Below, in pieces: positions 2,146 to 59,584 of a stretch of DNA of 60,047 nucleotides (its first letter is position 1; each line of letters opens with the position of its first letter). The stretch spans positions 1 to 60,047 of the forward strand of contig JABANN010000155.1 of the NCBI GenBank assembly GCA_013115125.1, given 5' to 3'. Position numbers and translations under genes: made by a program. The notes beneath the pieces were generated by a model. It saw nothing but the letters and a program-made list of their open reading frames with translations, was not told where the DNA came from and ran no database searches. The stretch comes from Perkinsus olseni (taxonomy: Eukaryota).

Positions 2146-3477
2146 CTATCGTTCCCCTGTCAGGTACTGGAATGGCTTTGACCTATCATTGGGCTATGTG
2201 GTCTCTGCCTGTCTTCGCGGGCGACTTGTCTGACTTCGTGTTTGAACTTCGGAAGGCTGGCTTCCTTCGAGTACACTTCCTAGTCCATTCGATGGGAGCG
2301 AGGTGATGAGGGTTCAGCTCAGATGGTGTCTATCCAGCAGTTGGTTGTAGGTTGTTCTGCGAAGCCTTGCCGGAGATGGAACGCCGCTCCTTCTTGAGAA
2401 TCCGGACGAGGGTCCCGGGATCGACTGCCTGTATAGATGATGTTTTAGCGTCTACATCGTCGTCGCACAGTGGAGAAGAGGAGTTGCCGGCTCTGGAACG
2501 GAAGCGTAATATCAGCACGGTGGGGTGGGGCTCGCTTAGATATCGCAAGGTCGTGGGTTCTAATCGTCCTTCCTCTATATATTTCCCTCTTAGAGACTGA
2601 CTTTGGCACCCCTTCCGAGGAAAGCGACCTGTGCGATCTGGAGGCGGGCGGTGGATGTGATACCCGTCGTATGCTCCTGTCCAGCGTCATCTTCGTTAAT
2701 GGAGATTATCCTCTCAACCACTTCAAGGAACAGGTAGGTCAACCTTAAATGCGCTGATGTTGATGAGCGCTGAAGATACTACCTAAACTACTCGAGTATT
2801 GCCAACGTGTCTCGATATATGCTGATCTTAAGGACGGCGCCTTGATCTGGGCTGAGCTGTTCAATAACGAGAAAGCAATGGGAAAGCACCCGGAAGAGGT
2901 AGTAGTGGGGAGTATCTTGAGGTCGGTGCTGGCACAACACAAGATTTGAGTATCCGTTGTTGTTGCTGTTGTTTGCAGATCTGCTGTGTTGACCCGGTGA
3001 CTGGTAAGAAGTATGGACAGGATTATGTTGATGTTATGGACACCACCCATATGGATCAAAACGTTCACGATTTGCGGCACAACTTCTTCAACTTGAACGT
3101 ACAAGTGGTCTCCGATATTGCCGACATAATTAGAACTGGCACCCCTGCTGAACAGCGTTATACGAGGTTGACACGGACGGGTAGGTAGAGCGCTGGGCTC
3201 GCGTGGGAGGAACCCGGGTTTGATCCCTGTTAAGTAGATAGAACTATCCATCTGAAATCGATCAGCCGTTTCGTAGTATAATACTGAGAGGGTCTAGGAA
3301 AAATATTCATTCGTTCTTAATCGTTCTTTCCGCTCTGAATCATCTAAAGTTTGTTGGTACATACCAACAAACTTGGTTGCTAACCAACTTGGTATGAAGG
3401 ATTATGATTTCTTTCTGCCAGGTCATGGAAATGTGTTCACTTTCCTAAGCCCCCCGAGCTTCGTGAAAAGTTGTTGA
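1..3477 (+). CDS. Multi-exon DUF900-type alpha/beta hydrolase-fold protein, 5' end outside the window
   Basis: Spliced exons give FTGHVDEDGLPNGLGMWMDDSAHGELLRGMWIRG|QPTSPFVSREFGSGS, EALVYLHGYN...IKPFIF (1660-1775), the nucleophile elbow HFLVHSMGAR (about 2274-2303) and DVMDTTHMDQNVHDLRHNFFNLN. The last exon, GHGNVFTFLSPPSFVKSC*, ends in TGA at 3475-3477. Confidence 0.75.
2116..2144. repeat. (TTG)n intronic microsatellite
   Basis: Direct ttgttgttg run. Confidence 0.9.
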
Positions 3478-3901
3478 AGTGGCGGATGGTCCATTTCCTC
3501 GCTACCGTAGTACCCATTTATAAAGTAGTATCTTTACCTCTTCTTCGTCTCATCACCGACCTCGGCTGTGCAATAACTCGCGCTGAAATCCGATTCATAT
3601 CGATCAAGCGATCGATTTCTCTCATCGCTTTTGCTGGTTTGGCGTATCTTTGGTACATTGACAAATACTGATAGATTTCAGCGTAACATTATGTAACATA
3701 TATTCAGGGTGGTAGGTCGCCCATTCTTGCACTCTTGAGATTCCTCAACGCATTGAGGGTAGGCAAGATAGCAAGTTTTAGTCTTTGGCGAAACAGCAAT
3801 GTTTGCTGGCTGTTCGGTGTATGTATTGTCTGATTTTTCTATTAGATTCCGTTGTCCTTTCTTTTCCTCTACTGGTTACTTCATAAAAAATTGACGCTCC
3901 T

Positions 3902-3930
3902 AAAATGCAGCGGCCGGGGATCGAACCCAC
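3902..3930 (-). other. tRNA-3'-end-like / B-box element, intergenic
   Basis: Reverse complement reads GTGGG TTCGATC CCCGG CCGCTGC A TTTT. No matching 5' acceptor strand or D-arm upstream. Confidence 0.75.
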
Positions 3931-4454
3931 GCTCTTTTCCAGGGGCTATTGCCCTAGGGTAGTACTGCTCCGCTCGGCCGCGGTAATAATCATTCCGCAG
4001 TATCGTTCGTGGAGTATCTGTTGCTACCTTCATCGTATCCCCAGCATCGACGGTTCCTCCCTGTTGCTGTCGTTATTCTCGATGTTGTTTCCTAATAGTG
4101 TTTCTTCCTTTCCATAATCATCATCACTGTTGCGTCCACACGAGGACCATGGAGGAGTGCCGAAGGGTTCTCCGCCGTTCATGACTTGCGGCCGGTAGTT
4201 GCTGGATCGTTGCATCCTGATCTCATTATGGCGATAGGATAGTCCCCACTTTTGTCAGCGACGCGAATCATCGTCTGATACGATACTAGAATTTCTGTCG
4301 AAGATTTTCTGTGGTTTTCACTGACATGGGGCTCACTTACAGGATGTTACTTTTTTTGGGGGTCCATGCTCTCAGGATCGCTTCGCTCGCTAACGGTATC
4401 GCTCATTGTTCGATTCTGCTGCTACCGTTTTCAGCTGCTACTTTCATCATCAAA

Positions 4455-56326: not shown

Positions 56327-57319
56327 CTCCGTGTGTCCTAGAGGTTCCCTCTCGATCGTTCTAGATCGCACGACACTAATGTGGATGAGTGGTACTGAAT
56401 CCGGAGAGTTTTAAATGCCGACTGGCAAGCATCTGGCCAGTCAGGGAGCCTCAGCCTCAGTGAGGGTAACGGATATTCTTCCTCTGTTGTCATTCACATG
56501 AGATTCAACCACCCACGATCTGTTACTGTGTGACTATTGGCTCCGCTCCTTTCTAATGGATACTCCCTAATGAACTAGGGACAGCACGCCTGCAGAAAGT
56601 CCTTTGTACTTGCCTTGTCTTTATTTCGTCTCCTCCCAAGGAGTCGTGTTACAGAGCAGTTGGGCAACGATACGAACGGGCAACAATCTCAACCTTCTAC
56701 ACTACTCACAGTCGAAACTTGAACTGCGCGGGAGTTCGTACGCATCACAAATTTTGTTGCTCACTCTTCAACACGACTCACCACGGCGGGAAGGGGGCGT
56801 CCGCGCACCAGAGACCCCACTCGAGGGTATCGACGCACAATCCGTCCGTCGGAACTGAATACGTCACCAGCAAGGAGCTTGTAAAATGCTGCCGTTCTGA
56901 GTCGACGGAAAACTCAGACTAGAGGCCACCGAGTTCCCTTCTACCTCGCCGAGAAAGAACGCTGGTCGTTCACAACGCGTTGTTGAGTATGTCTGTGTCC
57001 AGCAGGTATGATGCTACTAATGACGGTTCCCTCAGCCGTAGTGCTAATATATACTCTACTTGTCACACGATACAACTATCCAGCTCTGATAGTGAGAACG
57101 CTCACTGCGGTGGCCCGATGAACATCTTTCGTCGAGTAATAGCGACACCTAGCCGTGTTCCCCCCACACTGAGTAAGGTGTCGATCCTCTGCAGAAGTCC
57201 TCCCGTAAAGACCATCAATCTGGCACTTGATAAATCAACAACCATCCTTAGGTAATAAACCTTCTTTCCCAGTAGGATTTATCGTTACTAATATCATTGA
57301 TATTGACAAATGATGAAAT

Positions 57320-58989
57320 TCATGCTTCAATGGGCTTCTCTTCCCATCCGTGTTTCCTCTTCCAAGCGAACGCCGCCATCTTCAATGCCTCCTTACGATC
57401 ATTATAACCACCTGAAAACTCCACCAATACCGCGAATTCAATATGAAAAATTTTAAATCTACCATTGTGGTAGTAATGCCGCATTTAATCATGTATGATC
57501 CAGTTGGATACTATCCTCGCTGAAGCATTCAAAAAGTTCTGTAACCCGAACATCAAAGACCAAATATGCGAAAAATTCCGTTGAAACCGAGCAGAAGACC
57601 AAAAACCTTACACTGCATTTCAGCTTCAGGTGAAATGATGCCCGCCAACTTGATGAGCGACTTAGACACGAAATTTCGAACAACCTTCGTCTCCCTGGCG
57701 GCTTGGGCCACTTCCGATATCAACGCCCCTGAAAAGGAGGCCCTCCCTCCCCGGGTGATGGTATCGAGACTTACCCAATTCAACGAAGGTTCCTTCAGAA
57801 GGGTGCAAGAAAAGATCATCGAGGCTGCAGCTGAACTCGATATTCCAACCCTCCCTCCACTTCCTCACCTGAAACTACTATTCCCTCAATCCCCCCACGG
57901 CCTCTCTAATTGATCTATCTACTGTGAGACGCTCTCACAGTACAGTATAATGCGAGTCACGACTCTAGTTAAGAATATCATTTCCCCAATGGATGGCTTC
58001 ACTCGACTGATTTATCTACCACCACCTGTGGGAGGGCTTATTACATTTTTAGGAGTGCCTTGCCACTTGAGGATCGGATCGTCGGGGAAGTTGAGGATTT
58101 CATCAACCAAAGACTTGAACTTCCACGCACCTGGGGAAACGTGCAGGACGATTTTTTCCAGAATTCCCTCCGATATTTGTCGGCCAAGCAATACCAAACT
58201 CCTACCAGCCATGCCGAGGTCCTGCGTATTCCACACAAGACGATCGTCATCAACTCGATCCAGACGACCCATGAACAGCTCAGAATTGTTCAAGTGGGCT
58301 ATCAGAACCTCACAGGCCAATCTTCGGCTCGGTTGCATGATCACCAGCTCCGTGGATTTGCTGCCGATATCGGCCACCAAACTCCCACCGGGCACTGGCG
58401 AAAAGAAATGAAAAATCGCGCATCCTTATCGAGTGAGCCAGTTCTCACGTTCGTTGAGCCGTCCGAACAGAATCAGCATGATAGCGGTGATGTAGGCAAC
58501 CGACATCCACTAAGACGAGGGGATGGGAAATTAAAGAGAGGTTCTTCCCTCACCGAAGCGTTCTTGAAAGCTCTAGTACTACTAGAGGAGCCCGAGACGA
58601 GGCCGCCGGTCGGCACCACGATGGTGTCCTTCTCTCCCTGGTCCACATTCTCCCAAGTTGGATCCAGATCGACTGACTCTTCGGTAGGGGTGTTGGAGCA
58701 AAGGGAGATCTCATCGACGTAGAGGATGTCATCTGAAAAAGGAACAAGTACTCAAGCGGTTTATGAGTCTAGGAAACCACAATTAAAATTTCGACTCCGA
58801 TTAATTCGCGAGATGACTATAATCTTTTTACTAACAACTGCACCAATACAGTCACCATAACGTAAGTCGATCATGTATCATCCCGCTTTGATCGCGAACA
58901 GTGACCCAAGTGACCACATGGCGACCATAATTACACAGGAATGATCCACGAATGAGCGGTTCGACGTTGGGAGAGTAACTCCGAGCCAT
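57320..58989 (-). CDS. Hypothetical protein, multi-exon; may extend further 5'
   Basis: Exon-like frames bounded by gt/ag: DDILYVDEISLCS..., VPGGSLVADIGSKSTEL...ILEKIVLHVSPG, and a final GGYNDRKEALKMAAFAWKRKHGWEEKPIEA*. Confidence 0.4.
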
Positions 58990-59354
58990 CACATCTCACA
59001 CCCGAAGGCCACGACGATGATCTTCATCAACTCCAGTCCGTTCGCTCACTTCGAAACTCCCTCACAACTGCCATTATTACTACTACGCTCAGCTCGTCAT
59101 TCCAAAATACTGAGCTACTACCAACTCCTAAAAATGCTTTCCTGGGTCCGAAATATCATTCGTCAATTTAAACGACTAGCTCCGCCCGCCTCGGGAGGGG
59201 ACACAGACGAGCGAGAGCCCCCACTTCGACTACTACCACTAACTTTCACGAAGTCCAAATTTGGGGACGCCGAGCCATCAGAGGGCACCTCTACTGGTGG
59301 CGGCATGCCGAGGGCGGTTGAATATCACTTTTGTATCCTGAACACTAAAATAAA

Positions 59355-59584
59355 CACCACCTGTGGGATTCGAACCCGAGTCCTTCCCTTGCTCGTCAAT
59401 TGAAGAACGCGAAATACGCAAGGAGTGGTATTGGAAGCTCAGCGATAACGGTGAGGTGAGGAGTAATAGACCAGAGGAAGCGATGGACGAGCGCCAACAG
59501 GCGATCACGCTTCATGGAACCTTCAACCAGAAACAGCGAAGAAGGAACATCAATAAAAATGCCTTCGCCGGGGATCGAACCCGA
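59355..59584 (-). other. Two tRNA-3'-end-like / B-box elements (59355-59379 and 59560-59584)
   Basis: rc GGAC TCGGG TTCGAAT CCCAC AGGTGGT G TTTATTTT and GGTA TCGGG TTCGATC CCCGG CGAAGGC A TTTTT. Confidence 0.75.

Follow-up and report, generated by a model that had tools for sequence, protein, structure and literature searches.

The stretch analysed here (the window) is a 60,047-nucleotide (nt) nuclear contig of Perkinsus olseni, an alveolate parasite of molluscs, and all motif statistics below were computed within it. Its genes and gene spacers carry many copies of a short module that resembles the 3' end of a transfer RNA (tRNA) gene. At 4434-10822, the annotated protein P0001 could be threaded exactly onto the window in 33 exons and 32 annotated introns. 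P0001 (1183 residues) is a fusion of three genes, which encode a PWI-domain protein, an Sdh5/SDHAF2-like protein and DDX55. The RNA contigs in this region are separate transcripts, as seen from contig boundaries at 6632 (end of a piece), 6724 (start) and 7570 (end) and from the spliced-leader junction at 7674. For the intron set, the annotated 'introns' 6599-6899 and 7514-7748 were dropped, since they are gene spacers, and the introns 6799-6845 and 7420-7470 shown by RNA were added. Fragments of tRNA-gene tails make up a third of the introns in these three adjacent genes.

The module is 34 nt long, and about 22 recognisable copies were found. Each runs from a variable-loop AGGTC through the T arm and the 3' acceptor strand to C72, A73 and a T-run. 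The exact B-box, GGTTCRANYCC, was matched 15 times against 0.58 expected, and 15 or more matches were seen in none of 100 shuffles. A profile was built from 23 copies aligned on the B-box motif, and 22 copies were accepted for the counting of features. In the 23-copy alignment the conservation starts at the variable-loop-like AGGTC and ends with the T-run; no conserved positions were observed upstream of the variable loop. At a threshold of 12 bits, the 37-column weight matrix gave 26 hits, where 60 shuffles gave 0.65; at 18 bits it gave 21, where the shuffles gave 0.02. TTT was present immediately at positions 74-76 in 13 of the 22 accepted copies (0.30 expected), A73 in 16, C72 in 15 and GG at positions 45-46 in 12. 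The copies end in three to five T residues directly after position 73, the 7-nt acceptor strands vary from copy to copy, and some copies are substituted at invariant T-loop positions. Judged by these features, the elements are orphan 3' ends of tRNA genes, and each carries a putative terminator of its own.

A first-pass annotation of this DNA had listed 19 such elements and two weak ones, with start coordinates that correspond to tRNA position 49 for '+' copies and to position 73 for '-' copies. All 19 and both weak ones were found in place; a good copy at 26264-26297 (22 bits) had been overlooked. The matrix also added a few weak copies, and two exact B-box matches outside the first-pass list (12604 and 41779) have neither T-run nor variable-loop features and may be due to chance. 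That the elements are real was confirmed by both shuffle controls, and the TTT and GG counts bear out the constant distance to the T tract and the resemblance to a variable loop. The T-rich tract is intrinsic to the module, and its coincidence with splice signals is an addition made here. The elements had been described as orphans. ARAGORN detected no tRNA gene in the window, and Rfam nothing at gathering scores and no tRNA match over 3000-17500 even at E up to 10. With lowered thresholds, ARAGORN made 11 calls at 85% and 127 at 75%, which were mostly noise and were not used. The absence of an adjacent A-box was also borne out, since none adjoined the copies and a 20-nt module with an A-box-like core occurs separately in three other introns. 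For a generic A-box-like pattern, six matches were counted; shuffles gave 2.3 ± 1.4 and at most six, so the result was not significant.

Copies of at least 12 bits were located in 12 of the 32 introns of the three genes, among them 11 of the 29 short introns (Table 1). This amounts to 12 copies in 6.4 kb, or roughly one per 500 bases. The coding sequence of the three genes (3549 bases) contained no accepted copy. One matrix hit of 19.6 bits at 7923-7933, directly after the intron 7811-7923, overlaps the start of the DDX55 Q-motif exon and was read as chance. Only about seven further copies were found in 11-60 kb, and three of these seven lie in candidate short GT..AG introns, as judged by sequence alone.

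The splicing of these introns was followed with contigs of public runs placed on 3000-17500. They came from one RNA run and two probable RNA runs of three studies (X7, X8 and X9) and from the DNA run X1. GT..AG joints were observed in all three RNA-type runs and none in X1. At least six of the copy-bearing introns have RNA joints (6963-7225, 7420-7470, 8231-8284, 8669-8724, 8812-8860 and 9146-9193), in addition to 31 further joints, and for a seventh, 6425-6478, splicing is shown by contig pieces. The other five are based on the annotated model, and three of these are also backed by a P. marinus protein that is colinear across the site. What is removed is a complete spliceosomal intron, as is expected of an introner. 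The RNA contigs had no cover over 11.2-13.6 and 15.1-17.5 kb and were uninformative on the copy at 16847-16880.

Table 1. Copies of the tRNA-end module and sites of two further intron modules in the window. Scores are those of the 37-column weight matrix.
Position	Strand	Feature	Score (bits)	Basis and remarks
2548-2581	+	doubtful weak copy	15.3	in protein-match gap 2508-2592 (tblastn segments), likely upstream-gene intron
3209-3242	+	weak copy, C56 changed, without T-run; near 5' end of the 241-nt intron 3180-3420 of the upstream gene	12.9	RNA contig pieces 3000-3179 and 3421-4100 joined in X7, X9
3902-3935	-	strong copy, unspliced, in transcribed 3' region of the upstream '+' gene	36.6	RNA contigs unbroken over 3421-4100/4150; CT where antisense intronic copies carry GT
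5151-5184	-	antisense in 58-nt intron 5134-5191, PWI-domain gene	32.4	P0001 threading
6041-6074	-	antisense in 47-nt intron 6039-6085	35.8	P0001 threading; 5' splice site GTAAAA is complement of T-run plus AC
6425-6458	-	antisense in 54-nt intron 6425-6478, which starts at the trailer complement	29.4	X9 RNA record joins 6250-6424 to 6479-6632
6673-6706	+	copy in spacer of about 90 nt between PWI and Sdh5-like transcripts	32.5	contig ends 6632, 6724
6967-7000	+	weak copy, A58 changed, without T-run; 5' end of 263-nt intron 6963-7225	13.6	GT..AG joint skipping 263 in X7, X8, X9
7433-7466	+	sense in 51-nt intron 7420-7470, Sdh5-like gene	32.4	joint skipping 51 in three RNA runs, none in X1; T-run is pyrimidine tract before CAG
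7637-7674	+	copy 7637-7670 in spacer before DDX55, feature taken through acceptor AG	32.7	
7819-7838	-	20-mer module in intron 7811-7923		exact match to 10469-10488
8231-8264	-	antisense in 54-nt intron 8231-8284, DDX55	32.8	joint skipping 54, three RNA runs; 5' splice site GTAAT is complement of A73 plus trailer
8682-8715	-	antisense in 56-nt intron 8669-8724	27.8	joint skipping 56, three RNA runs
8813-8846	-	antisense in 49-nt intron 8812-8860	32.6	RNA joint skipping 49
9153-9186	+	sense in 48-nt intron 9146-9193, T-run before TTGCAG	28.8	joint skipping 48, three RNA runs
9420-9449	-	antisense in 60-nt intron 9419-9478, without T-run	35.7	P0001 threading and colinear orthologues; GT of intron is complement of A73 plus next base
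9844-9864	-	20-mer module with one base deleted, abutting 3' splice site of intron 9822-9866		fuzzy search
9962-9995	-	antisense in 52-nt intron 9956-10007	34.0	P0001 threading and colinear orthologues
10130-10163	+	sense in 59-nt intron 10110-10168, T-run before CCAG	36.8	P0001 threading and colinear orthologues
10469-10488	+	20-mer module in intron 10452-10501		
5606-5618, 9291-9303, 9619-9631		13-nt motif sites		
12596-12629	+	exact B-box (12604) without variable-loop, A73 or T-run features		possibly chance
16847-16880	-	copy within candidate 55-nt GT..AG intron 16841-16895, '+' strand	36.0	sequence; flanking open frames compatible, which proves nothing
26264-26297	+	copy absent from the first-pass list	22.2	
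41771-41804	+	exact B-box (41779) with A73, without T-run or variable-loop features		possibly chance
44189-44222	+	copy within candidate 47-nt intron 44180-44226, '+' strand, T-run before CAG	37.7	sequence, frames compatible
56297-56330	+	copy antisense to candidate 50-nt intron 56278-56327 of a '-' strand gene	27.3	sequence; layout as 9419-9478
59351-59384	-	copy; on '-' strand T-run then AG	29.9	
59556-59589	-	top-scoring copy, 5/5 T-stem pairs intact	41.1	

Eight of the intronic copies are antisense and four are sense to the host gene. In the three short introns with a sense copy, the T-run forms the pyrimidine tract, and the distance from the discriminator to the intron end is 8-11 nt. In the antisense copies the discriminator is 1-21 nt away from the 5' splice site. 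Four of these eight introns start with GTAA, which is complementary to the trailer T-run together with two bases; in a fifth, the GT is complementary to A73 and the base after it. The 5' splice sites in the intron set are loose, with GT followed by varied bases, so that short inserts could readily be spliced. In the copy at 7637-7670, the T-run is followed by CAAG, and the AG at 7673-7674 is the spliced-leader trans-splice acceptor of the DDX55 mRNA. Here, the RNA contigs of the runs X7 and X8 begin at 7670, and the loose letters at their start agree with the 3' part of the P. marinus spliced leader PmaSL1 in the sequence printed in PMC3101222; because of this match the leader was placed directly after the AG. 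Depending on orientation and place, the terminator tract thus falls on a 3' or a 5' splice site in cis or on a trans-splice acceptor.

An element that ends like a tRNA gene, including discriminator and terminator, might also be a working 3' half of a split or permuted tRNA gene that is joined to a 5' half encoded elsewhere, and 5'-end-like pieces do occur elsewhere in the window. In this case the T-stem should be maintained, but it was not. The outer three T-stem pairs were formed in 42 of 66 cells, compared to 39.8 ± 2.7 when the 3' strands were dealt randomly among the copies (P = 0.26). Only in four T-stem cells was a pair kept through a change on both sides, and no copy-specific covariation of the T-stem was detected in the 22 copies. 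Since the pairing was no better than after swapping, the T-stem reflects a shared consensus and not a maintained helix, and the first-pass view that the RNA fold is not retained holds. The broken pairs suggest, by a rough calculation, that about a quarter of the sites have been substituted. Folding of the intron RNAs gave a mean z of -0.29 with copies and +0.28 without and hence no stable structure, unlike fungal introner-like elements.

Further points argue against split genes. Invariant T-loop positions are substituted, and the only transcripts seen run antisense to 8 of the 12 intronic copies. The matching 5' halves were searched for in the window with the complementary 7-mers needed by all 22 copies, and none of their 221 occurrences was followed by an A-box-like start. 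Ordinary tRNA genes are described as abundant in P. marinus (PMC3706591). Split halves had already been rated as less likely in the first-pass annotation, with which we agree. We consider them extremely improbable, and this reading is close to refuted.

The B-box is the best-conserved block of the module. It cannot be read as a sign of selection, because the copies were found through the B-box, an ascertainment that inflates its conservation. With about a quarter of the sites substituted, six exact and six one-mismatch B-boxes in 32 introns would probably be only modestly above the expectation, provided that most of these introns began as copies. The first-pass annotation had also raised a chromatin system in which TFIIIC would bind these sites without polymerase III, similar to extra TFIIIC (ETC) or chromosome-organising clamp (COC) sites, and would organise chromatin or boundaries. 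The conserved B-box, the two copies in short intergenic spacers and the one intronic copy that is conserved between species would be in line with such sites. In yeasts, ETC and chromosome-organising clamp sites are few, lie between genes and are defined by the measured occupancy of TFIIIC. Like them, the window has B-box matches away from complete tRNA genes, with 15 exact matches and no tRNA gene. In contrast to them, the Perkinsus copies are dense in transcribed introns and retain further features of a tRNA end. A bound factor would stand in the way of RNA polymerase II at the 12 copies that lie in 6.4 kb of transcribed gene bodies, and C72, A73 and the T-run are kept as well, for which B-box function has no need. 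The proposal found no support beyond the motif and is ill-suited to such a density within RNA polymerase II units, so that we regard functional TFIIIC sites as highly unlikely.

The age of the copies was addressed with DDX55. A protein search with one DDX55 exon gave orthologues in P. chesapeaki and P. marinus, and over 665 aligned positions the DDX55 proteins of the window and of P. marinus share 82% identity. In the P. marinus model P0005 the orthologue of the intron 8812-8860 is translated, and its peptide differs in 2 of 13 residues from the translation of the copy in the window, whereas the sequence just past the copy peptide differs freely between the two species. Since the P0005 peptide retains the copy, the copy in 8812-8860 predates the split of both species. 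Two copy-bearing introns that are in frame and free of stops are translated in public models, namely 7420-7470 in P0001 and the 8812-8860 orthologue in P0005. The module may be a recurrent source of annotation errors in Perkinsus.

An old copy that is common to P. marinus would also be expected of a passenger, that is, of tRNA debris that landed in existing introns, or replaced sequence of them, and survives because introns tolerate it. The overlap of the T-run with the splice signals would then mean that an intron stayed spliceable only where the fragment was placed in this way. The lack of target-site duplications, the copies in a 3' untranslated region and in spacers, and the two weak copies in long introns (241 and 263 nt) are likewise in agreement with passengers. 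The intron lengths, however, are not. Short introns with a copy are 47-60 nt long (n = 11) with a median of 54 nt, of which the module takes up 34, and short introns without a copy are 43-121 nt long (n = 18) with a median of 55 nt. Because the introns with a copy are no longer than those without, the 34-nt module cannot simply have been added to an older intron of the usual size. Insertion into a normal intron would lead to about 85-90 nt, and a massive compensating deletion would be needed in 11 of 11 cases. We rate the passenger model as unlikely; it is one of the two main rivals to the reading favoured below, the other being filler capture.

It was also considered whether pieces of tRNA genes or transcripts were captured repeatedly as filler at the repair of double-strand breaks, with the spliceable ones persisting and no mobile family involved. 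The tRNA genes of P. marinus are described as unusually many (PMC3706591), the acceptor strands vary between copies, no duplications are seen at the junctions, and the introns contain other short modules, possibly 5' tRNA ends. Random breakage would not make every copy reach from the variable loop to the T-run in one common register, and the outer T-stem shows a shared consensus instead of many different covarying stems. Filler capture is distinctly unlikely on these grounds.

We favour, with moderate confidence, that the fragments are decayed tRNA-gene 3'-end insertions which created, or now constitute, mini-introns, and that they form an old, tRNA-derived introner-like family. The first-pass annotation had named a tRNA-derived intron-generating or SINE-like family among its alternatives, and this fits best, as the copies fill most of very short spliced introns in both orientations. 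In the proposed mechanism, tRNA-gene 3' ends, from the variable loop to the polymerase III terminator T-run, would have been inserted into Perkinsus genes in both orientations, and the fragments are now spliced out of the mRNA within very short introns, most of whose length they make up. The terminator would suit the fragment to its role as an intron. In sense orientation, the T-run would provide the pyrimidine tract 8-11 nt before the 3' AG, and in antisense orientation its complement, preceded by GT, would provide a 5' splice site of the GTAAA type. In gene spacers, the T-run plus an AG could act as an acceptor for spliced-leader trans-splicing. The insertions would have created introns rather than entered older ones, and they may stem either from a primary transcript of polymerase III or from a SINE-like master of tRNA origin (SINE, short interspersed nuclear element).

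Several results weigh against the mini-intron family. The strong copies are clustered, with 11 in the 32 introns of the three genes, and the neighbouring gene at about 170-3670, which has about 12 introns when the gaps between protein matches are counted, has no strong copy and two weak ones. Intron gain was not demonstrated, and the single cross-species datum is an old, shared copy. The mean identity between copies is 44% at positions that are not universal in tRNAs (60 kb examined), and no subfamilies above the column-shuffle null were detected, hence nothing points to recent bursts. Target-site duplications were not found either; of 11 junction pairs, 2 have direct repeats of 5 nt, about as many as chance would give, and one of the two lies within a repetitive RS-coding stretch. 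The Rfam tRNA model gives the fragments no score. Finally, a B-box fragment without an A-box is a non-standard polymerase III unit.

A k-mer comparison of the 32 introns revealed two more shared motifs. The exact 20-mer module was matched twice, in opposite orientations, against 0.01 expected, and all three introns that contain it or its one-base deletion belong to DDX55. At 9844-9864 the contigs of the DNA run X1 split into several continuations, as at a multi-copy repeat. The core of the 20-mer resembles the A-box consensus, and the module is presumably like a tRNA 5' end. The 13-nt motif, found in the introns 5583-5648, 9285-9345 and 9599-9679, gave six matches with up to two mismatches against 1.65 expected. 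By eye, it could be the T-stem 3' strand plus the acceptor of a further tRNA end without the loop. Rfam recognises neither of the two modules. They hint that other pieces of small-RNA genes may also populate the introns.

Other observations were made along the window. The likely introns 320-389 and 487-610 of the upstream gene contain D-arm-like and acceptor-end-like stretches, and the latter starts with GTAAAATGG, like the antisense copies. A longer likeness to tRNA, seen by eye in the introns near 3217 and at 320-389, was unsupported, as Rfam gave no tRNA match there (305-400 included). Near-identical stretches tens of kb apart were found at 15227-15239 and 38851-38863 and at 25128 and 31314; their recurrence shows that the contig holds internal duplications. 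One of these pairs adjoins the open frame 24626-25876, which has a methyltransferase domain (PF13578). A WD40 gene lies on the '-' strand at 51252-51863. Trinucleotide runs are present at 12043-12098, (GAT)n, and at about 2130-2145, (GTT)n, the latter within the long gap 1796-2165 of the upstream gene.

Of the systems known elsewhere, introners come closest to what was seen here in their main traits: they are repeated families that constitute spliceosomal introns, are precisely spliced and have copies that decay toward ordinary introns. Known introners are transposons of hundreds of bases. At about 34 nt, in introns of some 50 nt, the Perkinsus module is far shorter, and it is a tRNA gene end with a polymerase III terminator; its copies are also diverged, have no target-site duplications and show no recent gain. 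Introners or introner-like elements are described from Micromonas, Aureococcus, fungi, dinoflagellates and Amoebophrya (PMC7789003, PMC3879977, PMC3609843), and a relative of the dinoflagellates among the alveolates is again the host here.

With tRNA-derived SINEs, the module shares the tRNA ancestry, the retained B-box, the lost cloverleaf pairing and the dispersal in both orientations. It differs from them in that the Perkinsus copy has no A-box or 5' tRNA part, and thus not the head of A- and B-box, ends at its own terminator instead of a tail that is A-rich, a simple repeat or like a long interspersed nuclear element (LINE), and has about one-tenth of the usual SINE length. In primates, antisense Alu elements donate splice sites, as the homopolymer tract of this polymerase III-derived repeat becomes the pyrimidine tract of a new 3' splice site. 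The use of a homopolymer tract as a pyrimidine tract is common to both, whereas Alu makes new exons in long introns and the Perkinsus fragment is itself the intron and is used in both orientations.

The genus also has mobile DNA that is linked to its very numerous tRNA genes. The Dada DNA transposons described from P. marinus are 4.7-11 kb long, encode a transposase and insert into tRNA genes, where a 6-nt site in the A-box is duplicated, and more than 500 copies of five tRNA gene types are reported for this species (PMC3706591). Nothing Dada-like flanks the Perkinsus fragments. A metagenome search for relatives returned eight loci with 27-48% identity, none of them a Perkinsus relative. By title and abstract, no account of tRNA-like introns in Perkinsus was found among the papers listed by literature searches, with subscription journals largely outside the coverage. 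The introns of Perkinsus are described as mostly shorter than 100 bp (PMC3101222).

The origin of new spliceosomal introns is a long-standing question, and the tRNA-gene tails suggest one route. We propose tentatively a class of mini-introners, in which the insertion of a tRNA end of about 34 nt creates an intron of about 50 nt or, between genes, a spliced-leader acceptor, because its polymerase III terminator would supply a splice signal in whichever orientation it lands. Such a class may have given rise to a sizeable part of the introns in Perkinsus. If true genome-wide, this would link the amplification of tRNA genes in Perkinsus to the origin of introns, and the module would be the smallest known intron-forming element. 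It would also explain annotation errors in which in-frame copies are read as protein in P. olseni and P. marinus models. The module would also offer a simple sequence marker with which intron gain could be dated in perkinsids and in early relatives of the dinoflagellates.

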